A DNA stretch of 64,000 bases from Escherichia phage vB_EcoM_G2469: the sequence record MK327934.1. One strand, 5' to 3'. Position 1 is the first letter of the stretch; every line of letters starts with the position of its first letter. A model generated the notes under the pieces. It was not told where the DNA came from. It did no database searches and saw nothing but the letters and a program-made list of their open reading frames with translations. Shown piece after piece: positions 12,649 through 44,735 of this stretch. Position numbers and translations under genes: made by a program.

Positions 12649-12897
12649 TCAGAGGTTGATTGATACAACGCGTTTGATAAAATTCACTTCACTTACTGAA
12701 AGGTCTTTAAGACCGATTGATTCTAAACGCTGAGTAAGCGTCAACATCGGGATATAATCCCAATGAGTTTTAGTTGCTTGATAAGTACGAACTCCATTAG
12801 CAATTTCAACGTTCAAATCGGAAATGGTAATGAATATCGGACGCTCGTCATTAACTTTAAGGGTTAGAACAACTTTCTTTGAATCTAAACTAATCAT
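12649..12897 (-). CDS. hypothetical protein
   Basis: 82-aa ORF. Confidence 0.4.
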   Translation of the reverse strand: MISLDSKKVVLTLKVNDERPIFITISDLNVEIANGVRTYQATKTHWDYIPMLTLTQRLESIGLKDLSVSEVNFIKRVVSINL

Positions 12898-13076
12898 GAC
12901 TTAATTTCCTTCGCAATTGAACAGAAGATACCACGGTCACAAAGCATTTCACCAATTTCTGGATATTTGATTGAACGGTACCAAACATCCAGGCTTGAAA
13001 CTCTGGTTATCTGTATGGCATTACCATTGACAGAATAGTACTGGTCAACCTTAATTTCTTTATCTTCAATTGTCAT
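12894..13076 (-). CDS. hypothetical protein (start at internal ATG 13074-13076)
   Basis: MTIEDKEIKVDQYYSVNGNAIQITRV...; the longer ORF 12894..13238 has an implausible N-extension. Confidence 0.4.
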   Translation of the reverse strand: MTIEDKEIKVDQYYSVNGNAIQITRVSSLDVWYRSIKYPEIGEMLCDRGIFCSIAKEIKS

Positions 13077-13242
13077 TTTATTTTCCTCTATAGTAGATGG
13101 TTTAATCTTAACACATCTATTGAGGATGTAAACTGTTTTATGAAAATATTTTTTGATTTGAGAGGGGCACAAGGAGATAGTGAAGTGAAGATTCCAATGG
13201 ATTATATTAGAAATGAGATAAAGAAGACCAGGCGGCACCTGG

Positions 13243-25799: not shown

Positions 25800-26094
25800 T
25801 TAAAGTTTCAACAAAATTCACCAAAGCATCCTGGCAAGCATCAACCTGATTTTCATAAAAGTCTCCGTTATCATTTACCGCGTGATAAGCTACATCATTC
25901 AAATCTGAATCGGCTTCACGTAGGTCACGGATAAGGTCCATCAATTTATTAGCTTGTTCACGGGTCATTTTACCATACTCGTTTCAATAAGATTCACTAT
26001 GCCGTTTACCATGTTATAAGTAAACATCGGATAATTGTATTGTATCACAACGTATACGATAAGCAAAAGTTTCATTTTGTTCTCCATTTGTTTT

Positions 26095-26133
26095 GATAGG
26101 ACTACTATAACATAGTCCTATCAAGATGTAAAC
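26095..26133 (-). promoter_or_regulatory. early-promoter cassette: GTTTAC -35, -10 inside the palindrome GATAGGACT-N10-AGTCCTATC
   Basis: Plus gataggactactataacatagtcctatcaagatgtaaac; small ORFs start at 26074 downstream. Confidence 0.45.
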
Positions 26134-26366
26134 TACCGATTATGTTTTAAATGTTGATAAAGTTCTTCAACTTGTTTAGGGTCCAAAACAATTAGGTCAT
26201 TTTCTTGGCGAAGATAAATCCATCCCTTATCTCCAGGACCATTTTTACAAAACATCACCACCATATCATCATCTTCAGCGCTTTCAGGTAAAAGTTCAAG
26301 TACACCGTCTTCAGATTTTCCAGTATAATCGTAAAGCATAATATCCTCACATAATCTCGTTAACAT
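26133..26366 (-). CDS. hypothetical protein
   Basis: 77-aa ORF. Confidence 0.45.
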   Translation of the reverse strand: MLTRLCEDIMLYDYTGKSEDGVLELLPESAEDDDMVVMFCKNGPGDKGWIYLRQENDLIVLDPKQVEELYQHLKHNR

Positions 26367-26526
26367 ACATTTGCAATTCGGTGTGGGCGTCAGCCATCTT
26401 TTTCATAGCTCTGTTAATGTCGATGTCTCCATCTTCGCAACCATGAGCATTTTCCCAATCAGATACCGCATTAGCGTACTCTTCAATCAAAAACATTAAC
26501 TTAGAAATTTTTTCTTTACGTGACAT
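26347..26526 (-). CDS. hypothetical small protein (start MSRKEKISKL)
   Basis: ATG at 26524-26526 preceded by a GAGGAGAA RBS; the longer track ORF begins inside the promoter. Confidence 0.4.
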   Translation of the reverse strand: MSRKEKISKLMFLIEEYANAVSDWENAHGCEDGDIDINRAMKKMADAHTELQMYVNEIM

Positions 26527-26593
26527 AACGTTCTCCTCTAGTAAGTAAGGTTTACTATAACACAACCTGAGGAGAAGTAAACTGATAGATGCC

Positions 26594-26621
26594 AAAAAGC
26601 CCCGACCTTTCGGAAGGGGCT
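26594..26621 (-). terminator. intrinsic terminator (minus strand)
   Basis: Plus aaaaagccccgacctttcggaaggggct: GC-rich stem with GAAA loop followed by a U-run on the minus strand. Confidence 0.65.
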
Positions 26622-26627
26622 AGTAAA

Positions 26628-26930
26628 TTAGATAGATGTAGGCTCTAATTTTATTTTCATGAACTCGGCAAATTGTCTGGCAGTTTTTATGCCTTGTTCA
26701 TGACATTCAAATGCATCATCACAGGGACTATTTTTGTAATGCTTTGCCATATACTTATAGAATTTTTCAGAATTCTCGACATTTTGAATTTCAAACAAAG
26801 TATATACGTTTTTAATCCCTGATTCCATAAAGTTATCAAAATATGGGTCGATATATGCAGTACCAACGATAGGAGTTGTTGCTGCAAAAAACCCCAGCAT
26901 CGCCATGACAGCTATCGCTCTTAAGGCCAT
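26628..26930 (-). CDS. secreted protein, function unknown
   Basis: 100 aa with signal peptide MALRAIAVMAMLGFFAATTPIVGTA. Confidence 0.5.
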   Translation of the reverse strand: MALRAIAVMAMLGFFAATTPIVGTAYIDPYFDNFMESGIKNVYTLFEIQNVENSEKFYKYMAKHYKNSPCDDAFECHEQGIKTARQFAEFMKIKLEPTSI

Positions 26931-26942
26931 ATAGGCCTCCTG

Positions 26943-27155
26943 TTAATTTTGGCCAGTATTTATTTTTCGCCTTTGGACGGCCTTAACATCTGTGAGGTAT
27001 TTTTCCAGCTTGCGCTTGCGTGTATAATCAGCTTTAGAACCAGTTTGACGGATATCCTCGTTTAAATGAGAAATAGAATGTCCTAATTCTCTTCGGATTT
27101 CATCCAATTGGGTTACAGTAAGATTACGAAGTTGTCTTTCGTTTAATTGCTGCAT
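26943..27155 (-). CDS. hypothetical protein
   Basis: 70-aa ORF. Confidence 0.4.
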
Positions 27156-27182
27156 ATATACCTCTTGGTTAGATATTAGTAT

Positions 27183-27764
27183 TTATAACAACCCTGTCAA
27201 ATCGTTCCAATGCTTCCGGCATAATGACACATATCTATCGGTATCACCAATTTCAATTTGACTGCCATCTGTAATTGGAAGTCCGTCTTCCGTGACTCTA
27301 GCTACCATTGTGGCCTTTTTACCGCAATGACAGACACCTTTAAGTTCAACAAGCTTATCGGCAATAGCCATTAATGCTTGAGAACCTTCAAATAGATTAC
27401 CTTTAAAATCTGTTCGTAGTCCATATGCCATTACCGGCACATTGTATACGTCAACAATACGACTAAGTTGATACACCTTTTCAGTAGTTAAGAACTGAGC
27501 TTCGTCAACAAATACGCAGTGAATATCCTTTTGTGCTGCAGCCCATTTATAGAATTCAAAGATATCCATGTCTTTTGTAATTATATTGGCGTCCTGACGA
27601 ATACCAATACGAGAGACTATTTCACCTTTTGAATCGCGAGTATCAATAGCCGGTTTAAGAACTAATACACCCATGCCACGTTCTTTATAGTTATGTGCGG
27701 CAGTAAGTAATGAAGCAGACTTACCAGCGTTCATAGCGGCATAGGTAAAAATTAAACTAGCCAT
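27183..27764 (-). CDS. tk: thymidine kinase
   Basis: 193 aa, P-loop YAAMNAGKS, C-terminal CHCGKKA...CRKH zinc motif. Confidence 0.9.
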   Translation of the reverse strand: MASLIFTYAAMNAGKSASLLTAAHNYKERGMGVLVLKPAIDTRDSKGEIVSRIGIRQDANIITKDMDIFEFYKWAAAQKDIHCVFVDEAQFLTTEKVYQLSRIVDVYNVPVMAYGLRTDFKGNLFEGSQALMAIADKLVELKGVCHCGKKATMVARVTEDGLPITDGSQIEIGDTDRYVSLCRKHWNDLTGLL

Positions 27765-27773
27765 AAGAGTCCC

Positions 27774-27956
27774 TTATAGTGAATTCACGTAGTCAATGAG
27801 TTCTTGTTCTTTCCTGTCAAATGATTCCAACAATGCTTGATATTCTTCGTCCGTCAAAGGAGCATATTCATCATACGCATTGGTGGCTGCTTGCTCATCC
27901 AATAGGTCATGGATAAGTTCAAACAGTTTAGTTTTCTCTTCTTTAGTCAATTTCAT
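27774..27956 (-). CDS. hypothetical acidic protein
   Basis: 60-aa ORF. Confidence 0.4.
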   Translation of the reverse strand: MKLTKEEKTKLFELIHDLLDEQAATNAYDEYAPLTDEEYQALLESFDRKEQELIDYVNSL

Positions 27957-28165
27957 TTAGGTTCACCTTCTTTAACGAAATCTGGGTAAGGGTAAAATCC
28001 TGAGTAAAACCCTTCACCTTTATGATTGCTACAACCTTTGTTCGAACAGTAACACCAATAATCAAAATCACAAGCCATTTCGTCATTGCATAAAGCAAAA
28101 ACTACAGGCCATTCGCATTTTTCGCATTTAGCACCTGTAAGAATTTTTGTTTGACTCATAGCCAT
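27953..28165 (-). CDS. hypothetical Cys-rich small protein
   Basis: 70-aa ORF with about 10 Cys (CEKCEWP...CSNKGCSNHKGEGF). Confidence 0.45.
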   Translation of the reverse strand: MAMSQTKILTGAKCEKCEWPVVFALCNDEMACDFDYWCYCSNKGCSNHKGEGFYSGFYPYPDFVKEGEPK

Positions 28166-28383
28166 GTCACCTTTAAGCAGTATTCTTCTACATGCTGTTT
28201 ACGACCTTTCTTATCAATAAAGGTATATTCAACGAATGTTCCGATGTAGTCTTTATCTACATCATGTGGACTATTAATTGGACATTTGGTACGACAAATG
28301 CGTTCCCATTGACGAATAATTACTGCCTTATTCTTTGGATCGTATGGATGTGGATAATGTATATTCATAATAACGGTTCCCAA
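28156..28383 (-). CDS. hypothetical protein
   Basis: 75-aa ORF. Confidence 0.4.
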   Translation of the reverse strand: MGTVIMNIHYPHPYDPKNKAVIIRQWERICRTKCPINSPHDVDKDYIGTFVEYTFIDKKGRKQHVEEYCLKVTWL

Positions 28384-28862
28384 TCAACAATCACAATTTC
28401 TAGTTTAGTAGAATACGTATCTAAAATCTCTTCGATGACATCCCAGTTTCCACCACCAATACCTGCACCAATTCTTGGCATATAAATTACAGGCTTTATT
28501 ATCTTATTCTTTCCGAATTCATTTAATTCTATTATACAATTCATTAAAGCAGAGTACTCAAAATTAGGTCCCGGCTCAAACTGTGTATAAAGATTAAAGC
28601 AATAAGCTTTATGGGTCTTAAAATATTTTTCATAAACCGAATAAGTCCCGAGTTTAGACTTGTCTCCGAATTCGGTTTGAAGTTTATCGGCTTCTAAAAT
28701 TTTTGGATAAGCCTTTGCTAATTGGCCTGCTACACCGGCGCCCATTGTATGAAAACAATTACACCCATGAGCAATATTATTACCTTTAGAAAACAGGGCG
28801 ACAATATCGCCCTTGATATAGTTTTTAATCACTTGCTGCAAGTCCTCTATTATAAGAGTCAA
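28365..28862 (-). CDS. macro-domain-like protein (predicted ADP-ribose binding/hydrolase)
   Basis: 165 aa; motifs IAHGCNCFHTMGAGVAGQLAKAYP and MPRIGAGIGGGNWDVIEEIL resemble macro domain signatures. Confidence 0.5.
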   Translation of the reverse strand: MTLIIEDLQQVIKNYIKGDIVALFSKGNNIAHGCNCFHTMGAGVAGQLAKAYPKILEADKLQTEFGDKSKLGTYSVYEKYFKTHKAYCFNLYTQFEPGPNFEYSALMNCIIELNEFGKNKIIKPVIYMPRIGAGIGGGNWDVIEEILDTYSTKLEIVIVDWEPLL

Positions 28863-29172
28863 CTAGACGGTCCACCATAGAATTGCATGCTGCCTTATCT
28901 TTAGGTTCCGCCACCGAGCATTCTAATATTTGCCATTTTTTATAGTATCTTTTAATTAAGGTAGACGCCTTGAACCTACTAGACGCCCCATCTTTTTCTC
29001 CGTCTTTATACGCGTATAACAATTTTTGTGAAAAATCTACTTTACACTCTTGACTTTTACCACAATAATCAGACGCCGTTCTGTTTGTATACTCCGTTAC
29101 ATCAGTATATGTAGTATTAGCAAGAGCGTTAAATGAAACCAAGCTAACTATTAAAGCCAACATTTTGGTCAT
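28825..29172 (-). CDS. secreted Cys-containing protein, function unknown
   Basis: Signal peptide MTKMLALIVSLVSFNALA; 115 aa. Confidence 0.5.
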   Translation of the reverse strand: MTKMLALIVSLVSFNALANTTYTDVTEYTNRTASDYCGKSQECKVDFSQKLLYAYKDGEKDGASSRFKASTLIKRYYKKWQILECSVAEPKDKAACNSMVDRLVDSYNRGLAASD

Positions 29173-29711
29173 TCTTTTATTTCCAGTAGTTTATTTGATT
29201 TAAGGTAATTAGCCTTTTCTAGGACTTCAGAAGCATATTTACTTCCAGCACTTGTCTTCCATCCCGCATTATATGAGGATATAGCTTTTCTTATATCCCC
29301 GTTATGTATATTTAACCAATAAGAAAATTCGATATAAGCCCATCTGGCCGAATTAGACCGCTTAGATAGCATTTTCTTAATTTGGGCATCAGTCATATTA
29401 TAACCAAGTTGGTTAATTCTTGCCCTCATTGTTGGTAGATAATTTTGGAACATTCCATACGCATGGTGACCTTTCTTATCTTTAAGATTAATACCGGCAG
29501 ATGATTCCTGCCATAGTATTGCGGCCATTATGTATCCAAGTCCTTTCTTATGCATATTTTCATGCGTTTTAAATTTTCCGTCCTTAGAAAACTGTTCCCC
29601 AAACTGATAAGCATAATTCAAGTTATCGAGTTGGACATTACTAAAAGTATGCTCGGAGCTATGTGCTGATAACGAAAGAGCAAATAGACCAGCGAGTAGT
29701 GCTTTTCTCAT
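29169..29711 (-). CDS. secreted lytic transglycosylase-like protein (SLT domain)
   Basis: Signal peptide MRKALLAGLFALSLSAHS; motifs WQESSAG, AYGMFQ, SYNAGW. Confidence 0.55.
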   Translation of the reverse strand: MRKALLAGLFALSLSAHSSEHTFSNVQLDNLNYAYQFGEQFSKDGKFKTHENMHKKGLGYIMAAILWQESSAGINLKDKKGHHAYGMFQNYLPTMRARINQLGYNMTDAQIKKMLSKRSNSARWAYIEFSYWLNIHNGDIRKAISSYNAGWKTSAGSKYASEVLEKANYLKSNKLLEIKE

Positions 29712-29719
29712 GTTTACCT

Positions 29720-30178
29720 CTAGATTTTAATCACTGCTTTAGAAGCTTTTCCTGGTAGTCGTTTACTGTTAATAATAGCCATTCTGCATTGAAGAGTCTT
29801 CATTTTGAATGCCGGATTTTCGCGACAAACTGTAAGTCCTAACCAAAGATTTCCATCAGTTATTTCTAAACGGCCTGGGCGATATTCGACACCTTCGACA
29901 AAATCTTCATCAACATCTGGACGTGCCGGCATTGATAAAAATTCTGTAACTTCTTTAACATGATTTTTTACTTTATGAAATAATTCAAAAACGTAATTCT
30001 CATCTATTTCTCTCTGGATGGCACGATCTAAGAGATGTTGAGAATACTTGATATGAAAGCCTGGTAGTCCAAGAGACTTTGCAGCATCTTTTATACCGGC
30101 ATTTATTTTGCGGAACTCCGTTTCAAAGATTCGACGGAGTTTATTACGGCGGATAAAAACTTCCGAATTGATAGTCAT
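29720..30178 (-). CDS. regB: site-specific RNA endonuclease RegB
   Basis: From ATG 30176-30178: MTINSEVFIRRNKLRRIFETEFRKINAGIK...PGRLEITDGNLWLG..., matches T4 RegB. Confidence 0.85.
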   Translation of the reverse strand: MTINSEVFIRRNKLRRIFETEFRKINAGIKDAAKSLGLPGFHIKYSQHLLDRAIQREIDENYVFELFHKVKNHVKEVTEFLSMPARPDVDEDFVEGVEYRPGRLEITDGNLWLGLTVCRENPAFKMKTLQCRMAIINSKRLPGKASKAVIKI

Positions 30179-30185
30179 TTTGATT

Positions 30186-30235
30186 TCTCCTCTAGTTGAC
30201 AAGTCTATAGTAACACAACTAGAGGAGAAGTAAAC
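30186..30235 (-). promoter_or_regulatory. regB promoter with 13-bp inverted repeat pairing the promoter spacer with the RBS
   Basis: -35 GTTTAC (plus 30230-30235); arms 30186-30198 and 30216-30228 are perfect reverse complements; the downstream arm contains the GAGGAGA RBS. Confidence 0.5.
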
Positions 30236-30239
30236 TACT

Positions 30240-30455
30240 TTATTGATAAAATGGAGTTAAAGCCCAAGATTCTTTAGATACTATATTGGCGAAATGCCTC
30301 ATCTCTTCAATTTGGCGACGACGCTGGTCAGCATAGTCTTCTTCGCCTTCTTCCTTACAATCTTCAAGGTCTTCTTCAAGATACTTTAAGTATTCACTAC
30401 AAATTTTGTTGACCTTTTCTTGGAAGTCCAATAACCCAGTAATAGTAGAAGCCAT
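30240..30455 (-). CDS. hypothetical acidic protein
   Basis: 71-aa ORF. Confidence 0.45.
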   Translation of the reverse strand: MASTITGLLDFQEKVNKICSEYLKYLEEDLEDCKEEGEEDYADQRRRQIEEMRHFANIVSKESWALTPFYQ

Positions 30456-30721
30456 TAGTATTTTTCCTCAGGTCGAAATACTGCACGACATGCCCACATA
30501 CTGGCTTCTTTTAGATGTTGCTTAGCGTACTTAAGAGCCTGCACTGCATCCATATCTTCTTTGGTTTGTTGCTCTGTTTCATTTTCTTTCAAGATATATG
30601 CTTCTTCAATCAGAGCATCAAACAACAATCCAAGACGGACTTCAGCATCTTTAATAGCGTTCACTTTACCAATTTTATCATCGGTATGCGGCTTGTAACC
30701 TTTAATATCTTCAATCGACAT
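30455..30721 (-). CDS. hypothetical protein (start at internal Met MSIEDIKGYKP)
   Basis: ORF 30455..30889 trimmed; 88 aa. Confidence 0.4.
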   Translation of the reverse strand: MSIEDIKGYKPHTDDKIGKVNAIKDAEVRLGLLFDALIEEAYILKENETEQQTKEDMDAVQALKYAKQHLKEASMWACRAVFRPEEKY

Positions 30722-30935
30722 AAGGAATTTCCTCATCTGTGGCAAGGTCATATTCGACCAATTGGATAGGCTCATTAATACCATATCCACGTACAGTGAT
30801 ATCAGTTGTCGGATAGTTTCCAGTAATATCACCCGTTCTAAATGCTTCAATGAATGATTGCTCGCCTGAGCAACTAAACCAGGCGGCAAAACATTTTAAA
30901 ACATCTTCAGACCCTTCTATAATCAATTTAGCCAT
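30711..30935 (-). CDS. hypothetical protein
   Basis: 74-aa ORF. Confidence 0.45.
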   Translation of the reverse strand: MAKLIIEGSEDVLKCFAAWFSCSGEQSFIEAFRTGDITGNYPTTDITVRGYGINEPIQLVEYDLATDEEIPYVD

Positions 30936-31297
30936 TATAGACTCTCAGTAAAGGTGCGAGCGATAACGTCACGCTGCTGTTCCGGAGTCAGAGAGTTAAA
31001 GCGAACTGCATAACCGGATACACGGATGGTCAGCTGCGGATATTTTTCCGGATGCTTAACTGCATCTTCCAGAGTTTCACGACGCAGAACGTTAACGTTC
31101 AGGTGTTGACCACCTTCAATTTTAACTTTAGGTTGATGTTCAATTTCAATTTCACGGGCATTCAAACCGTAGAAAATTTCCGGGTCTACAATAGCGTCTT
31201 CTTTAAAAGTCTTAGAGACAATAATCCGGGCTTGAGTACCATCTTCAAAATAAATAGTGCCTTTATGTGCACCTTCAAGAATTTGATATGCTTTCAT
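30935..31297 (-). CDS. autonomous glycyl radical cofactor (GrcA/YfiD-like; T4 Y06I-type)
   Basis: 120 aa; C-terminal [62 protein letters not shown] is a glycyl radical domain, near-identical to E. coli GrcA as recalled. Confidence 0.85.
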
Positions 31298-31303
31298 ATA
31301 ACC

Positions 31304-31612
31304 TCAGTTAGAAAATAAATTTATCCAAGTTTTTTCTTTAATCAAAAATGGGTCGGAATTAAACGCCATTAAACTTTGAGTGATTAATCCCTTAAATGGC
31401 CCATCAATAAATTCCATTTTGAAATGCGGAATACTAGTCATCAACCGTGCATTAGGAGCAGTACAAAGAACCTGCTGCCCTGCGAACGGTCCTTTAGTCA
31501 AACGGTATCGTTTAGGTTTAAAATGGTAAATCTCGTAATTTTCTACAAGAGCCATTTTATTGCATACTGGGCTGTTATAACAATATTCAAAAACTTCAAT
31601 AGTGGTCATCAT
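31304..31612 (-). CDS. hypothetical protein
   Basis: 102-aa ORF. Confidence 0.45.
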   Translation of the reverse strand: MMTTIEVFEYCYNSPVCNKMALVENYEIYHFKPKRYRLTKGPFAGQQVLCTAPNARLMTSIPHFKMEFIDGPFKGLITQSLMAFNSDPFLIKEKTWINLFSN

Positions 31613-32148
31613 TGCATTCCAATCACAAAAAATTGAGGACGAGCATTACCGCCGATGCAATATTTGCTTTTGCAACAGTGTTGGACTGTTTTAATATGTA
31701 CATTGTAAATCTTATCCATATCAGGAGCTTTAATAGGCTCGTCAATTATGTACAGAATACGAGAAAGCGTTAATCCACGGAATTTAGAACCTTCATTGCC
31801 AATAAAACTACGAACAGAATCAGTAAATAAACGGAATCGAATATCGTCGCTAGAATAACGAGAAAATTCTTTTTTAATGTTGCCGGCAGAAATTTTAGCA
31901 TAAGCTGAAGTATTAGAAAGAACAATAACTGTTCCACCATCATACAGCCAATTAACAGCAAAATTAGTTACTGCGGTCGATTTACCTGATTGTCTGCCGC
32001 CGTCTAAACGAAGTGTACAGTACTGCTTGAGTACGTCTTCAAATGGTGGGACATAACCGTTCTTACAAATTTCTTCTACTCTAGCATCAGAATGGTGTGT
32101 AAAAGCATTCATCAGGGATAGATAAGGACCAGTTAAAAATGTTCTCAT
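31609..32148 (-). CDS. hypothetical P-loop protein
   Basis: 179-aa ORF with GGRQSGKST Walker A-like motif. Confidence 0.5.
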   Translation of the reverse strand: MRTFLTGPYLSLMNAFTHHSDARVEEICKNGYVPPFEDVLKQYCTLRLDGGRQSGKSTAVTNFAVNWLYDGGTVIVLSNTSAYAKISAGNIKKEFSRYSSDDIRFRLFTDSVRSFIGNEGSKFRGLTLSRILYIIDEPIKAPDMDKIYNVHIKTVQHCCKSKYCIGGNARPQFFVIGMQ

Positions 32149-32261
32149 TTAGTTTCTCTTTTAGGTTGGGCCATTCCGTGGCGCATGAATTGTCCATTTC
32201 TGTATTTACCCCTCCAAGTAATTATGAATATACTATCACAATTCTAGGAGAAAGTAAACTG

Positions 32262-32564
32262 TTATTTACCTTTAATTACTTTAGCTGCTTCGATAGCCGC
32301 TTGCTGAAGGTCATCCATAGACATACCGAATTTAGAAGCAAAGTTATCAATTTTCTTTTCGACAGCATTCAAAGGCTTGGCCTGTTTACCTTCATTAGCG
32401 CCAGGAAGAGCGAGAATACGCTCTTTGTCAATATAAAGGCTTACAAGTTTCTTACGGTCTTTATCGGACAAATCATGAAATGAATGGGCCTTTTTATTTA
32501 TAGCGGCTTCTAATTTACCTGCACTCACTCGCGCTTCAGTAATAAATTCTTGATATGTTTTCAT
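32262..32564 (-). CDS. ipII: internal protein II-like (capsid-targeting sequence MKTYQEFITEA)
   Basis: 100 aa, N-terminal CTS, basic. Confidence 0.6.
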   Translation of the reverse strand: MKTYQEFITEARVSAGKLEAAINKKAHSFHDLSDKDRKKLVSLYIDKERILALPGANEGKQAKPLNAVEKKIDNFASKFGMSMDDLQQAAIEAAKVIKGK

Positions 32565-32605
32565 ATGTTTCCTTTAAATGTAAATAGGTCCGAGTATTAG
32601 CTTTA

Positions 32606-33184
32606 TTAGGAATTACGGGCTGCATTAGCAACGGCGTAAGCGTACTGAACATTAGCGTCTTTAAACGTGCCCTTAGTTGTATCTAGTTCTACCTTAAAAC
32701 CGCCTTTAGCCATAACATCGGCAAATTCTTTACGGAAAGCCATTGCATCAAGACCTTTCCATGATGATTTATGCTTGGCAAATTCAAGACCTGCGAAGTT
32801 GACAGCTTTAGCTAATTTATTATCAATGACCCATTTACCTGCTTTAGGCACAAACTTCGGACCTTTTTGTTTAGAGAACAGTTTTAAATTCCAGCGACGA
32901 AGGTCACTGTCGGCTTTAACAAAAGCTGCGTCTAAGTTACTAGCAACAACATCTTCAATATGAGCAAATTTAAGTCCGTCAACTTCAATATTTAGATCAT
33001 TACGCCAGCGTAGTCCTTCCCAAGCGAAGGCTTTAAAGTCGGAAGCCTTTGTAGCTAAGTACCGTTCAATAGGAGCTGTTTTAGGGTCAAAGCCGTTTCC
33101 GCCACGATAATTCCACTCGTCCTTATTAATGCCTTGAGCTTTTCCTGCAAAGGCTTCGGCGATAAATTCTTTATATGTTTTCAT
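32606..33184 (-). CDS. ipIII: internal protein III-like
   Basis: 192 aa, N-terminal MKTYKEFIAEA. Confidence 0.6.
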   Translation of the reverse strand: MKTYKEFIAEAFAGKAQGINKDEWNYRGGNGFDPKTAPIERYLATKASDFKAFAWEGLRWRNDLNIEVDGLKFAHIEDVVASNLDAAFVKADSDLRRWNLKLFSKQKGPKFVPKAGKWVIDNKLAKAVNFAGLEFAKHKSSWKGLDAMAFRKEFADVMAKGGFKVELDTTKGTFKDANVQYAYAVANAARNS

Positions 33185-33247
33185 TTTTGTTTCCTTGTTT
33201 GTTTTGATAGAGTAATTATACCATATTAATACTTAAGCGTAAACAAT

Positions 33248-33508
33248 TTAAGCTTTACCGCCAGAAATAATTCCGAAGTTGTTAAAATCGTATCCAATAT
33301 CGTCAACATCTACTTTAGGACTTACTACAACATAAGCAATTTCACTACGTTTTGCATAGGTGTTGATTTCTTTACCATCGCCACCTAAGAAAGAATACCC
33401 ATTACGTTTTAATGAGCCAAAGTCTTCGGCATCACCAATGAAAGCTTTAACTTTAAATTTAGGACCTTTGGCATCTGCTTCAGCGATAAATTCTTGATAC
33501 ATTTTCAT
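33248..33508 (-). CDS. internal-protein-like small protein
   Basis: 86 aa, N-terminal MKMYQEFIAEA. Confidence 0.5.
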   Translation of the reverse strand: MKMYQEFIAEADAKGPKFKVKAFIGDAEDFGSLKRNGYSFLGGDGKEINTYAKRSEIAYVVVSPKVDVDDIGYDFNNFGIISGGKA

Positions 33509-33514
33509 TTTTCC

Positions 33515-33928
33515 TTAGTAAATTGATTTACCATAGTATTTGTACCAAGTCGGACGTTGAGCAATTTTTTCATCTAAGCGTGCTTGACTTATCGCAATGG
33601 ACGCTTCAGACGGGACGTAATTATTACGAAATTCTATAGGAATGTCGGAAATATCCTGGACAGTCGTGTCCTTGATTTTGAAACCACGTTTCAAACATTC
33701 GGCTATTAGCTCGATTTGACGTAAACGTAAAAATTCGAGTTTGTCGTAAAAGAATGTTACGTGACCTGTGCCTAAGATAAATGTTGGAGAGATTTTAAAA
33801 TCCTTTACACGTTTACCGTTTTGAACATGTTTACGGACTGCACCAAATACGCGTGGTAATTCACGATACTCAGCCATAAGATGTTGGTCGGTCAGTTCAG
33901 AAACAAGTGTTAAATTGATACGGGTCAT
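33515..33928 (-). CDS. denV: endonuclease V (pyrimidine dimer DNA glycosylase) DenV
   Basis: [35 protein letters not shown]..., 137 aa, matches T4 DenV. Confidence 0.9.
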
Positions 33929-33931
33929 AAT

Positions 33932-33985
33932 TTCCTCCAAGTAGTTGATGAATGTATAGTATCAAAGTCCTTGGAGGAAGTAAAC
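33932..33985 (-). promoter_or_regulatory. denV promoter with 10-bp inverted repeat (TTCCTCCAAG/CTTGGAGGAA) linking spacer and RBS
   Basis: -35 GTTTAC (plus 33980-33985); arms 33932-33941 and 33970-33979. Confidence 0.5.
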
Positions 33986-33986
33986 A

Positions 33987-34268
33987 CTATTTTTCTGAAG
34001 CGCCTGAAATATATTTTTCAAGACGCTGTTTCATCAACGAGCCGTTCTTAGCGATTTCTTCCGGTTTATCGCACATACGCAACAATGCTTCAAGCTTAAC
34101 GATATCACTGGTGCGCTCAAATTTGCGAGTATCTATCTTACTAGCAAGTTCAGAAATACGTGCTAATAGACTTTCGGCTTCAACCAAAGCTGCACCTAGC
34201 TTAGTTGCAAATGTGTCAGTAGCTTCGTTAAGAATAGATTCTGATAAAAATTCACTATATGTTTTCAT
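33987..34268 (-). CDS. internal-protein-like small protein
   Basis: Start [11 protein letters not shown] (CTS-like); 93 aa. Confidence 0.45.
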
Positions 34269-34753
34269 ATATACGCTTTCCAAGTTCCTGTTTTAAATGT
34301 TGAGATTACGCGTTTCGCGCGATTAGGTGTCTGACGATACCATTTAGATTGGGCTAGATTTACTGCCGCTTCGTCCCAACGTTTCTGTTGAAGCATACGA
34401 AGAGAATTAGTAAAACCGGCGACGCCTGCTACACCCATTTGGAAGACCATATTGACCAATGCACAACGACGAACCGCATCTAAAGAATCATATACCGGTT
34501 TAAGTTTAGCATTACCCAAGATTCCGCGAACGGCTTTATCAACGTCTTCATTAAATAGCTTTTCAGCCTCATCAAGGGTAATTGTACCGTTGCATTTACG
34601 ACCGATCATTCTGTCAAGTTCAGCTTTAGCTACGGCTAAAGACGGGTTCTTTGTTACCAAATGGCCTATGCCAATCGTCCAAAAGCCTTCAGTGTCTTTG
34701 TATAAAGTCAGTCTAAGACCTTCGTCATTACGAAGCATTTCAAATATATTCAT
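34265..34753 (-). CDS. e: endolysin (T4 lysozyme)
   Basis: [32 protein letters not shown]..., matches T4 lysozyme. Confidence 0.95.
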
Positions 34754-34781
34754 AATACCTCCCACGTTTATAGGAGGTATT
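34754..34781 (-). promoter_or_regulatory. hairpin sequestering the gene e RBS (9-bp stem AATACCTCC/GGAGGTATT)
   Basis: Perfect inverted repeat immediately upstream of ATG 34751-34753; the downstream arm contains GGAGG; loop and upstream flank carry late-promoter-like TATAAA motifs. Confidence 0.55.
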
Positions 34782-34787
34782 TATTAC

Positions 34788-35246
34788 TTATAGGAGGGTA
34801 GTGAGCACCTTATATAATGATTTGCCCATTACATATTCCCATTGAGAAGGTTTAATTAAAGCGAATGCATCAAATTCAGGAATCTGTCGTCCGTCTGGGA
34901 ATGTATGATAGGAATTACAAACACTGTTTCTGAATTGCTCGTGCTCTACAGGGATGGTATATTGGAACAGATGAATATTCTTATTGTCTGAGTAATGATG
35001 TTCACCTAGGTCTTTCAGGAAGGCAGGGTCATATTGTGTAAACCCAGTTTCTTCTTCGCATTCACGAATAGCGGCTTCAATAGGAGATTCGCCAGGTTCG
35101 ACACGGCCTTTAGGAATATCCCACCGATGAGCTAAAGAACCTTTAGGACGAGAACCAGTTACACGGCCCATGAATAATTCTTTATCTTCGGTAAGGAAAA
35201 TAATACCAGCTGATAGTTCTTTCACTTTATTTTTCTTACTCATCAT
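34788..35246 (-). CDS. nudE: Nudix hydrolase NudE
   Basis: 152 aa, Nudix box GRVEPGESPIEAAIRECEEETG. Confidence 0.85.
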   Translation of the reverse strand: MMSKKNKVKELSAGIIFLTEDKELFMGRVTGSRPKGSLAHRWDIPKGRVEPGESPIEAAIRECEEETGFTQYDPAFLKDLGEHHYSDNKNIHLFQYTIPVEHEQFRNSVCNSYHTFPDGRQIPEFDAFALIKPSQWEYVMGKSLYKVLTTLL

Positions 35247-44696: not shown

Positions 44697-44735
44697 GATA
44701 GGACTACTATAACATAGTCCTATCGTGTTGTAAAT
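44697..44735 (-). promoter_or_regulatory. early-promoter cassette with perfect palindrome GATAGGACT-N10-AGTCCTATC
   Basis: Plus gataggactactataacatagtcctatcgtgttgtaaat. Confidence 0.45.

Follow-up and report, generated by a model that had tools for sequence, protein, structure and literature searches.

Why should the early promoter of a phage gene carry a sequence complementary to the Shine-Dalgarno (SD) region of that same gene? The question is raised by three genes of the T4-like Escherichia phage vB_EcoM_G2469 (MK327934.1), regB, denV and the ORF at 26347-26526, all on the minus strand of the 64,000-nt stretch of DNA analysed here (the window). An earlier note had described an arm pair at each of them and proposed that the mechanism known from T4 lysozyme is here generalised. 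Direct inspection of the sequence showed exact reverse complementarity of the two arms in all three pairs, at the coordinates given below, and the complementarity is confirmed at regB, at denV and, weakly, at ORF 26347-26526. The regB helix, given in the note as a perfect 13 bp, is indeed perfect and is in fact 14 bp long. The regB and denV sites are arranged as follows.

30230..30235, minus strand: -35 hexamer GTTTAC of the regB early promoter (sequence and regex scan)
30216..30229, minus strand: regB 5' arm (anti-SD) TTCTCCTCTAGTTG, exact reverse complement of 30185-30198
30207..30212, minus strand: regB -10 hexamer TACTAT, inside the hairpin loop (sequence and regex scan)
30185..30198, minus strand: regB 3' arm CAACTAGAGGAGAA, reverse complement of the 5' arm, with the SD GAGGAG within it
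29720..30178, minus strand: regB coding sequence, 152 aa, ATG at 30178 (ORF list, T4 annotation)
33980..33985, minus strand: -35 hexamer GTTTAC of the denV early promoter (sequence and regex scan)
33970..33979, minus strand: denV 5' arm (anti-SD) TTCCTCCAAG, exact reverse complement of 33932-33941
33956..33961, minus strand: denV -10 hexamer TACTAT (sequence and regex scan)
33932..33941, minus strand: denV 3' arm CTTGGAGGAA, reverse complement of the 5' arm, with the SD GGAGG within it
33515..33928, minus strand: denV coding sequence, 137 aa, ATG at 33928 (ORF list)

At regB the 5' arm directly follows the -35 hexamer and takes up 14 nt of a promoter spacer of 17 nt, while the 3' arm lies downstream of the expected transcription start; at denV an arm of 10 nt opens an 18-nt spacer. 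The duplex energies of the arms are -23.1 kcal/mol for regB and -18.8 kcal/mol for denV. When 114 gene starts of the window, called crudely, were ranked by the duplex between the upstream sequence and the translation initiation region (TIR), regB (-23.3 kcal/mol) came first and denV (-19.0 kcal/mol) second. Both are stronger than the experimentally validated hairpin of gene e, which the same scoring places at -12.8 here and -11.9 in T4. Chance was assessed by placing random window k-mers in the spacer, or by composition-preserving shuffles of the spacer, and pairing these with the TIR. None of 5000 random k-mers paired equally well at either gene, and the shuffles gave P = 0.001 for regB and 0.0016 for denV.

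The third site is weaker, and the scan for early promoters also brought up a fourth site, absent from the earlier note, and a partial case.

26594..26621, minus strand: intrinsic terminator GCCCC..GGGGC plus T run, just upstream of the promoter at 26582
26577..26582, minus strand: -35 hexamer GTTTAC before ORF 26347-26526 (sequence and regex scan)
26569..26576, minus strand: 5' arm TTCTCCTC, 8 bp, exact reverse complement
26531..26538, minus strand: 3' arm GAGGAGAA, reverse complement of the 5' arm and SD of ORF 26347-26526
26347..26526, minus strand: 59-aa ORF, phrog_2758, ATG at 26526 (ORF list)
13128..13133, minus strand: -35 hexamer GTTTAC of the fourth site (regex scan)
13114..13126, minus strand: 5' arm region of the fourth site TCCTCaatAGATG, two short helices
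13084..13099, minus strand: 3' arm region of the fourth site, CATCT..GAGGA, with the SD within it
12894..13076, minus strand: gene of the fourth site, a 60-aa ORF, phrog_2283, ATG at 13076
32254..32259, minus strand: -35 hexamer of the partial case (regex scan)

The site at ORF 26347-26526 ranks fifth of the 114 gene starts (-14.8 kcal/mol), and its cassette nearly copies that of regB. In the chance test P was 0.004-0.02 for random k-mers and 0.02-0.09 for shuffles of the spacer; because about 20 promoters were examined, the 8-bp match is not significant alone, so that the exactness of this pair stands and its excess over chance does not. Its only relatives are 97% identical, with no divergent ones among them, and the intrinsic terminator just upstream of its promoter is a further reservation about this site. 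For the fourth site P(E) was 0.004-0.012, and its relatives (loci L162-L167) carry different arms, TCTCCTCAcGTGT/ACACaTGAGGAGA. The partial case has two nested elements, an inner hairpin that covers the -10 hexamer and, around it, a UCUCC:GGAGG helix; the same cassette is found before denV in another phage (locus L035).

RNA folding predictions were made for a long, read-through RNA and for a short RNA with an assumed start about 7 nt past the -10 hexamer. In the long RNAs the SD, and at regB the 3' arm that contains it, is predicted to be paired in both the minimum free energy (MFE) and centroid structures and in the short RNAs to be open, which agrees with the structural logic of the earlier note. 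The predicted probability that the SD is unpaired was 0.01 in the long and 0.78 in the short RNA for regB, 0.00 and 0.52 for denV, 0.01 and 0.63 for ORF 26347-26526, and 0.10 and 0.53 for the partial case. Across the window sites the range was 0.00-0.27 on read-through RNA versus 0.52-0.78 on RNA from the gene's own promoter, and at eight T4 sites 0.00-0.01 versus 0.27-0.81; other early genes showed no difference (0.47 long, 0.55 short). Measured against shuffled sequences, the predicted fold of the long denV RNA, with its SD paired, had z = -5.1, and that of the short RNA had z = +2.2, a structure weaker than that of the shuffles.

The word "generalised" proved too strong. A regex promoter scan of the window found strong pairing between spacer and own TIR at only 4 of 20 early-type promoters, and of 42 pairs of early promoter and gene in T4, eight have the design (alc, ndd.4, nrdC.8, regB, alt.-3, denV, motB.2 and modB). 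Pairing of this kind is thus a feature of a subset of early promoters and not a rule. Compared with the T4 early promoters overall, it is enriched at regB (13 of 18 lineages) and denV (13 of 16). Many early promoters carry a different hairpin, in which the spacer pairs with positions -7 to +2 and the SD is never touched, and a general tendency of early promoters to form stem-loops could be the source of part of the signal. We looked for a relation between the design and the absence of upstream terminators, and none was shown.

Comparison across the Tevenvirinae supports the view that pairing between SD and arm at regB and denV is under selection, since related phages keep the complementarity with quite different sequences. 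About 20 different arm pairs occur at the two genes, among them TTCTCCTCTAGTTG, TTTTCCTCTTGACTG, TTTCTCCTCTTTATG, ATCTCCTTTTAGT, ATCCTCTCTG, ATCCTCATTTG, TCTCCGTTTG and TTCCTCCAAG. In many relatives the 5' arm has shifted onto the -10 hexamer and discriminator (GATGTCTTCC/GGAGGACATC, ATGTCCTCC/GGAGGACAT, ATGATTATC/GATAATCAT); its partner is still the SD or start region, and its position is still before the expected start site. The upstream sequences pair with their cognate TIR at -15.7 kcal/mol for regB (19 upstream lineages) and -14.4 kcal/mol for denV (18 upstream lineages), compared with -9.5 and -9.3 kcal/mol for non-cognate TIRs (p <= 2e-5 for each). Generic complementarity between anti-SD and SD therefore offers no explanation, and the arms reach past the SD core into lineage-specific flanks. 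Some results weaken the case. The strand test had only a modest outcome: of 30 lineages, 22 favour the sense strand (p = 0.02), and the ratio of internal G.U to A.C is 9:3. Column-wise covariation was not significant in the only alignment that stays in register, and RNAalifold gave no consensus on the plain alignment; the support comes from different cassettes, each of them self-complementary. These promoter cassettes are exchanged between genes, and the same one may stand before different genes in different phages, so that independent origins are fewer than lineages. RegB here is 78% identical to RegB of loci L005-L009, where the sequence before regB matches that of T4 exactly. The most distant regB relatives, at 40% identity, do not have the design.

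These observations suggest that the hairpins probably tie translation to the promoter of origin, such that only transcripts of a gene's own early promoter yield its product. The 3' arm would serve as the gene's SD region, and the 5' arm as an anti-SD placed inside the sigma-70 early promoter of the same gene. This arm occupies the spacer by the -35 hexamer here, or the -10 and discriminator in other phages; both geometries put it upstream of the expected transcription start. A polymerase coming from an upstream promoter, whether by early read-through or from middle or late promoters, would copy both arms, and the SD would be locked in a helix of 10-15 bp that presumably blocks translation. RNA begun at the embedded promoter would start between the arms and leave the SD free. 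At regB and denV the upstream genes stop 1-5 nt before the -35 hexamer without a terminator, so read-through appears structurally unavoidable. Translation would then last only while the gene's own early promoter fires, in T4 for the first 2-3 minutes, and the gene would be silent on the longer RNAs that cross it later. The purpose may be brief, dose-limited expression, for example of the RegB nuclease; the regB early promoter is turned off at 2-3 min, and RegB synthesis has been described as tightly controlled (PMC3014915). In a T4 denV mutant with a RegB-sensitive context, the SD was efficiently cut at 3 min (PMC1702504), and it is therefore accessible on bulk early RNA. We consider this function rather likely on the basis of the complementarity, its placement, its excess and maintenance, and the predicted folds. 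A second effect is conceivable, as an untranslated gene on read-through RNA may invite Rho-dependent termination, in which case the hairpin would also insulate transcription units.

Hairpins that occlude an SD and are opened by upstream ribosomes are an established means of translational coupling in RNA phages and operons. Here, too, a ribosome on the upstream gene could melt the hairpin and make downstream translation proportional to upstream translation instead of silencing it, and in the window and most relatives the upstream stop codons lie 1-5 nt before the -35 hexamer and 7-11 nt before the 5' arm. However, the -35 hexamer always intervenes between stop codon and helix. Given the position of the ribosomal helicase, unwinding by a terminating ribosome extends only about 5-7 nt beyond the stop, which would miss the first regB base pair and barely reach that of denV. 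Coupling also gives no reason for a 5' arm that precedes the gene's own start site in either geometry, and we regard it as unlikely.

The helix might instead protect RNA, hiding the GGAG of the SD from RegB and from single-strand-specific host RNases so that long polycistronic RNAs survive for their downstream genes, with silencing of the hairpin gene a side effect. RegB cuts only single-stranded GGAG and is easily inhibited by secondary structure, and in T4 there are 16 intergenic GGAG motifs that are located in stable structures and escape cleavage (PMC1702504); all 3' arms here contain GGAG, GAGG or a similar motif. The denV SD of T4, however, already resists RegB through its 3' context and yet has the hairpin (PMC1702504). 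An arm within the leader would shield equally well, which leaves the placement upstream of the start unexplained, and most GGAG-type SDs of early genes have no hairpin. Protection as the main role thus seems quite improbable to us.

We attach similarly little probability to the hairpins being stem-loops of mobile promoter-early stem-loop (PeSL) cassettes, acting as attenuators, terminators or DNA recombination sites and overlapping the SD incidentally. T4-type phages are known to have such cassettes, whose stem-loops cover the -35 and -10 boxes or lie between them, and one stem-loop reduced downstream lacZ expression like a strong terminator (PMC2839356, PMC4122927). One cassette precedes different genes in different phages, and the SD takes no part in the stem-loops of many promoters here. 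Against this, the 3' arms are not followed by a U-tract (AAUCAAAAUG at regB, AUUAUG at denV) and are therefore not intrinsic terminators, DNA cruciforms are unlikely with loops of 17-27 nt, and in none of five published positions does the stem-loop pair with the SD (PMC2839356). Furthermore, the 5' arm relocates between lineages while its 3' partner stays at the SD, and SD pairing is enriched at regB and denV relative to early promoters in general. Chance or common descent, by which a pyrimidine-rich spacer and a purine-rich SD would be complementary by composition and jointly inherited, could account for the 8-bp site (26569-26576/26531-26538) and for a generic CTCC:GGAG match of about -9.5 kcal/mol between non-cognate partners, but is rejected at regB and denV, where it is very improbable given the k-mer and shuffle tests (only about 0.1% of shuffles matched the observed pairing), the cognate advantage and the arms' extension into lineage-specific flanks.

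The hairpins are thus best read as the logic of T4 lysozyme and IS10, apparently applied to sigma-70 early promoters. In the searchable literature and reviews, a body that excludes the main T4 genome review, we found no earlier description of the early-promoter cases. The likeness to lysozyme drawn in the earlier note is apt, and gene e of the same window has this layout, with CCCTCC and ACCTCC opposite GGGAGGT. RBS-sequestering hairpins with an internal late promoter are described for T4 e (lysozyme), soc, 49 and I-TevI (PMC3014915), and also for segB and Aeh1 mobE (PMC3014915, PMC2988022). As is predicted here, the SD and/or AUG of these genes is in a helix on upstream-initiated RNA, and a promoter between or over the arms yields a shorter, translated RNA that lacks the 5' arm. 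Those genes use the gp55 late promoter TATAAATA and are silent early and expressed late, whereas at sites of the regB and denV type the promoter is a sigma-70 early one, whose spacer or -10/discriminator is itself the 5' arm; because of this the predicted timing is reversed, with expression early only.

PeSL cassettes (Arbiol et al. 2010; Comeau et al. 2014) are compact units in which an AT-rich region and a strong sigma-70-type early promoter are joined to a stem-loop and to an SD with its start codon, and are thought to shield the gene from upstream transcription (PMC2839356, PMC4122927). They are exchanged between genes and phages, as cassettes are here. Their published stem-loops, which precede the promoter, lie inside it or directly follow it, were read as terminators and recombination sites, with the SD separate and unpaired, whereas here the SD itself forms the 3' arm, a U-tract is missing and it is translation that the stem-loop is predicted to affect. 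RegB autoregulation of regB has the same SD target and restricts RegB synthesis once the first minutes have passed (PMC3014915); it works by cleavage of single-stranded GGAG on open RNAs, whereas the targets of the hairpin would be the other part of the RNA population, the long RNAs that RegB is unable to cut.

A further parallel in logic is found in a transposon, IS10/Tn10, under the name "protection from external promoters" or fold-back inhibition. Davis, Simons and Kleckner (1985) reportedly found that sequence upstream of the element's own start pairs with the transposase translation signals on read-in transcripts, which leaves RNA begun at its own sigma-70 promoter as the only kind translated. 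A later source, which cites that paper, states that the IS10 translation signals are sequestered in secondary structure (PMC13181058). IS10 is a transposon with the device at a single locus, whereas here the design recurs across many phage genes and genera.

The window is Tequatrovirus DNA, and all the genes under discussion lie on its minus strand. Over 26000-34500 it shares 98.5% identity with Escherichia phage AV115, and 80% or more of this query is covered in 139 records. The earlier note had reported complementary arms at regB, denV and ORF 26347-26526, and all three pairs are exact reverse complements; only the length of the perfect regB helix needed correction, from 13 to 14 bp (30216-30229 with 30185-30198). 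Read along the coding strand, each site consists of GTTTAC (the -35), a spacer starting TTCTCCTC or TTCCTCC, TAnnnT (the -10), a stretch of ~10-25 nt, the Shine-Dalgarno (SD) region GAGGAGAA or GGAGGAA, a further 3-7 nt and ATG. The promoter scan gave the early-type spacing GTTTAC-N17/18-TAnnnT; the promoters at these sites are strong, sigma-70-like and early, the DNA before them is AT-rich, and SD and ATG follow within ~100 bp. The late-promoter motif TATAAATA does not occur at the early-promoter hairpin sites, and no Rfam family matched window 25800-35200 at E <= 1. The -35 and -10 hexamers flank or contain the 5' arm, which is the anti-SD, and with the transcription start placed from the position of the -10 the 3' arm, which is the SD region, begins ~2-10 nt past the expected start.

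Every GTTTAC-type promoter in the window was scanned, and the duplex between its spacer and its own translation initiation region (TIR) was calculated. Strong pairing was found in 4/20 early promoters, one of them absent from the first list.

Early promoters of the window with strong spacer:TIR pairing (all minus strand)
regB: spacer:TIR duplex of -23.1 kcal/mol
denV: spacer:TIR duplex of -18.8 kcal/mol
26582 site, before ORF 26347-26526: spacer:TIR duplex of -14.3 kcal/mol
Fourth site, -35 at 13128-13133, ATG 13076: spacer:TIR duplex of -10.8 kcal/mol

The remaining early promoters of the window gave duplexes of -0.7 to -7.8 kcal/mol, and partial or decayed versions of the design are seen at two more promoters (-35 at 32259 and 41739). 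By strength of the upstream:TIR duplex, regB and denV rank first and second of 114 gene starts (crude calls, both strands); gene e of the window, the experimentally established paradigm, reaches -12.8 kcal/mol. When 5000 random k-mers from the window were set in the spacer position of regB or denV, none paired equally well with the TIR, and composition-preserving spacer shuffles matched the pairing in only 0.1-0.16% of cases.

RNAs initiated upstream, which would carry both arms, were folded from 45-60 nt upstream of the -35, and short RNAs, which lack the 5' arm, from the expected start. At all four window sites the SD is predicted to be paired in the long RNA, in both the MFE and the centroid structure, and unpaired in the short RNA. 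In the ensemble, the SD core at these sites is unpaired with a probability of 0.00-0.27 (long) versus 0.52-0.78 (short), compared with means of 0.47 and 0.55 for the other 16 early genes of the window; the denV short RNA has less structure than its own shuffles (z = +2.2). The predicted folds therefore agree with the earlier proposal that read-through seals the ribosome-binding site and that RNA from the embedded promoter leaves it open. As a whole the proposal is partly supported, strongly for regB and denV and weakly for the third site, and its functional side is a prediction. Start site, read-through RNAs, block to translation and biological purpose are all inferred. The transcript isoform probably decides translation, so that translation of each gene would be confined to RNA from its own early promoter.

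The genes upstream of regB and denV end 4 nt and 1 nt before the respective -35 with no terminator between, and gene e, the internal-protein gene and denV follow one another without an intervening terminator. A true terminator was found only at the 26582 site, where a strong intrinsic terminator (26594-26621, minus strand) lies directly upstream of the promoter and downstream of a rI-like ORF (26628-26930; rI by position and size only). As this terminator abuts the promoter, terminator, promoter and anti-SD stand in series there. Hairpins set against upstream terminators gave 0/8 versus 6/29 in T4, and 1/3 versus 0/18 in the window, figures that show no clear relation between the hairpins and a lack of upstream terminators. 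Translational coupling with the upstream gene would suit the closeness of the stop codons to the helix; however, the -35 hexamer itself holds stop codons 7-11 nt from the helix, and we consider coupling unlikely.

The helix might instead protect long RNAs from RegB or other RNases. RegB requires its GGAG single-stranded (PMC1702504). T4 denV is RegB-resistant in any case, and protection would leave the position of the 5' arm before the start site unexplained, which makes this reading improbable. The regB early promoter is shut off after 2-3 min, with RegB cleaving its own SD (PMC3014915). In a T4 denV variant with a RegB-sensitive 3' context the SD was cut efficiently at 3 min (PMC1702504); the SD must therefore be open on bulk early RNA, as the transcript-isoform model expects.

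Little credence can likewise be given to a terminator or recombination module of the promoter-early stem-loop (PeSL) kind. No U-tract follows the helix, the next bases being AAUCAAAAUG at regB and AUUAUG at denV, and neither was returned by the terminator scan; the published stem-loop positions exclude the SD (PMC2839356), whereas here the SD remains the constant partner. An intrinsic terminator at the helix was dropped as a candidate because a following U-tract is lacking. Chance is hardly credible as a general explanation and could apply only to the 8-bp site before ORF 26347-26526, where P = 0.004-0.09 is not significant alone because ~20 promoters were examined.

A second and commoner class of promoter hairpin ('type B') is also present in the window, in which the spacer pairs with ~-7 to +2, just after the -10. 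These hairpins never touch the SD, would form on read-through RNA only, and fit the published PeSL subclass in which the stem-loop overlaps the -10.

Type B promoter hairpins
-35 at 44735, 38295, 37000, 26133, 40870, 45112 and 21670, and the promoter before ATG 11945: minus strand
Stems: ATAGGACTAtgtTATAGTAGTCCTAT (four copies, one with a G.U pair); GAGAGCA/TGCTCTC; ATGATG/CATCAT
Further stems: AGGTCTAT/ATAGACCT; GATAGGAAGA/TCTTCCTATC

The regB and denV loci were gathered from viral and metagenomic contigs, and their lineages take in Gelderlandvirus (STML-198), Winklervirus (CHI14), Risoevirus (Cronus) and one Enterobacter phage. The window is itself distinct from T4: its RegB shares 78% identity with the allele of the collected loci L005-L009, where the DNA upstream of regB is the same as in T4, and the gene content of its denV-regB interval is unlike T4's. 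Downstream of denV (31600-33510) the window has a 192-aa ORF and an 86-aa ORF, both close in size to the internal head proteins of T4, where T4 has vs.8-vs.3; the altered gene content is compatible with a hyperplastic region. In most of the ~17 distinct regB leaders the SD pairs with an arm embedded in the promoter, and the arm sequence is lineage-specific. The same pattern was found for denV, with the 5' arm placed over the -10/discriminator rather than in the spacer in many of the denV lineages and in one of the regB lineages. In both geometries the SD is the invariant element and the 5' arm still precedes the expected start.

Paired arms in relatives (5' arm/3' arm)
regB, window: TTCTCCTCTAGTTG/CAACTAGAGGAGAA
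regB, T4 itself: TTTTCCTCTTGACTG/CAGTTAAGAGGAGAA
regB, other lineages: TTTCTCCTCTTTATG/CATAAAGAGGAGAAA; ATCTCCTTTTAGT/ACTAAAAGGAGAT; ATCTCCTGTAG/CTACAGGAGAT; TCTCCTGTAAG/CTTACAGGAGA
regB, further lineages: ATCCTCTCTG/CAGAGAGGAT; ATCCTCATTTG/CAAATGAGGAT; CTCCTCTTG/CAAGAGGAG; CCTCCTTT/AAAGGAGG
denV, T4: TCTCCTGTAG/CTACAGGAGA
Arms over the -10/discriminator: GATGTCTTCC/GGAGGACATC; ATGTCCTCC/GGAGGACAT; AGTAGTCTTC/GGAGACTACT; ATGATTATC/GATAATCAT

A role of the CTCC spacer in promoter function was ruled out, as it is absent from most early promoters and the spacers are ordinary wherever the arm lies over the -10/discriminator. Pairing with the own TIR was far stronger than with the TIR of other lineages, both for regB (-15.7 versus -9.5 kcal/mol, 19 lineages) and for denV (-14.4 versus -9.3 kcal/mol, 18 lineages; p <= 2e-5 in each permutation test), which rules out generic anti-SD:SD complementarity as the explanation. 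The design is kept in 13/18 regB and 13/16 denV lineages versus 8/42 T4 early promoters (Fisher 1.4e-4 and 2e-5, the lineages being phylogenetically non-independent); regB and denV thus retain the pairing through cassette replacement far more often than early promoters generally. In the most distant regB relatives (40% identity) the pairing is absent, and a terminator upstream takes its place. At four denV loci from 345-380 kb phage contigs (L041, L044, L047 and L048) the -35 TTGAC forms part of an intrinsic terminator hairpin (such as GGGTTGACTTCGGTCAGCCCTTTTTGCTATAAT), which lies ~70-30 nt before the ATG and leaves the SD unpaired; judged by sequence, this is a fused terminator-promoter, another apparent solution to read-through. 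Relatives of the fourth window site (ATG 13076) carry different arms, and the 26582 site is uninformative in this comparison because the sole relatives it has are 97% identical to it.

For 12 regB leaders in a plain MAFFT alignment, RNAalifold returned no consensus structure, because the register of the helix varies relative to the -35 and the ATG; the arms begin 0-5 nt from the -35, so that they share no column register for alignment. In an in-register alignment of eight cassettes (A3) the register is clearly right, with 77.7% of cells paired versus <=62.5% when the partner is slid. Column-wise covariation in A3 was not significant (0.214 versus 0.186 in shuffles, 98/500 of which reach it), and one clean GC/CG swap was seen. 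A symmetric strand test found the sense strand better in 22/30 lineages (p = 0.02), with internal G.U:A.C pairs at 9:3 in sense and 5:5 in antisense, which gives modest support to a sense RNA. A count of 21:3 for G.U versus A.C was dropped as skewed by the folding algorithm.

One ~60-nt promoter-leader cassette with both arms precedes denV in T4 (L001 8354-8416) and at L020, and regB at L133/L107. The window cassette at 32195-32259 (-35 at 32259) also precedes denV at another collected locus (L035), and the 26582 cassette (26524-26582) is approximately a copy of the window regB cassette (30176-30235). As one cassette stands before different genes, the arms move as a unit in modular shuffling, and their diversity is thus partly due to replacement of whole cassettes that were already self-complementary rather than to stepwise compensatory mutation.

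A census of early promoter-gene pairs in the full T4 reference genome, with a cut-off of <= -14 kcal/mol, found the design at 8/42 pairs: alc, ndd.4, nrdC.8, regB, alt.-3, denV, motB.2 and modB, the 5' arm of modB sitting over the -10. By the same measure the late-promoter hairpins of T4 gave -11.9 (e), -17.2 (49), -9.6 (I-TevI) and -6.0 (soc). Predicted SD accessibility rises at all eight sites from 0.00-0.01 in the long RNA to 0.27-0.81 in the short. The design thus recurs, but at some early genes only, and is not a property of early promoters. The suggestion that the T4 lysozyme mechanism has been generalised goes too far for a design limited to 4/20 window and 8/42 T4 early promoters. In T4 (AF158101), alc (~136275) and alt.-3 (123032) have an identical 30-nt upstream promoter segment, aagtccctcgtgttgtgttatagtagtctt, each copy of which pairs with its own TIR; the alc helix of ~19 bp is long enough for RNase III to be considered.

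T4 is a textbook case of timed gene expression. How its early protein synthesis stops is still incompletely understood (PMC3014915), and mismatches in timing between transcripts and proteins have been noted without explanation (PMC9697503). It is possible, and we put it forward tentatively, that a recurrent and evolutionarily maintained 'translational insulator' is written into a subset of Tevenvirinae early promoters, in which the promoter's own spacer or -10/discriminator would double as the anti-SD. Each such cassette would then be translated from its own promoter only, blind to heavy early, middle and late read-through, and its arms would co-travel when cassettes shuffle between genes. The design may be preferentially retained where a gene product has to be transient or limited in dose (RegB, Alc, ModB, DenV), and the hairpin, together with RegB, which would destroy the open short RNAs, could give a two-pronged shut-off of immediate-early proteins. 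If this is true, the promoter-encoded anti-SD would amount to a simple instruction in cis, 'translate me only from my own promoter', by which dense co-oriented early genes with tandem strong promoters would escape additive or prolonged expression, toxic RegB, Alc and ModB would be kept transient, and shuffled cassettes would stay self-contained. Protein output would then be mispredicted from RNA abundance for these genes, and engineering would gain a compact, portable ~60 nt part that keeps the translation of a gene independent of transcripts arriving from upstream.

Searchable full text and the accessible T4 reviews contained no account of early promoters with anti-SD arms. As far as could be checked, the early-promoter version has apparently not yet been described as a class, and older T4 papers may mention it, perhaps in the work of G. 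Mosig.

Among known systems, an intrinsic terminator requires a GC-rich stem and a U-run, whereas the window regB and denV helices have no U-run. The PeSL cassette of T4-type phages has the same layout of promoter, SD and ATG and the same exchange between genes and variable loci. Its stem-loops have been described in the upstream AT-rich region, over the -35, between the -35 and -10, over the -10 and just before the start (PMC2839356). Here, the 5' arm likewise occupies the spacer or overlaps the -10, but it is the SD that serves as the 3' arm, at a distance of 20-30 nt downstream, so that both the stem-loop positions and the function proposed for PeSL differ. IS10 reportedly enjoys 'protection from external promoters', as Davis and colleagues are said to have described in 1985 (a study cited in PMC13181058). 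Its fold-back inhibition shares the principle that sequence upstream of the element's own start pairs with the TIR; IS10 is a transposable element controlling its transposase, whereas the design here concerns regB, denV and small phage ORFs.

The closest working likeness is probably with the hairpins of T4 e, soc, 49 and I-TevI, in which the SD and/or start codon is paired on upstream-initiated RNA and the promoter is placed so that its transcript starts between the arms (PMC3014915; PMC2988022). In the window, gene e (ATG 34753) has CCCTCC (34793-34798) and ACCTCC (34773-34778) facing the SD GGGAGGT (34757-34763) within 34751-34798, minus strand, with the arms lying among the late-promoter-like motifs TATAAGTA and AATAAATA; this is the known lysozyme arrangement, and it serves as an internal positive control. 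In the e/soc/49/I-TevI class the internal promoter is late (gp55, TATAAATA) and translation is late-only, whereas the window sites are of the early type; because the internal promoter is early and not late, the timing would be the reverse of that class.
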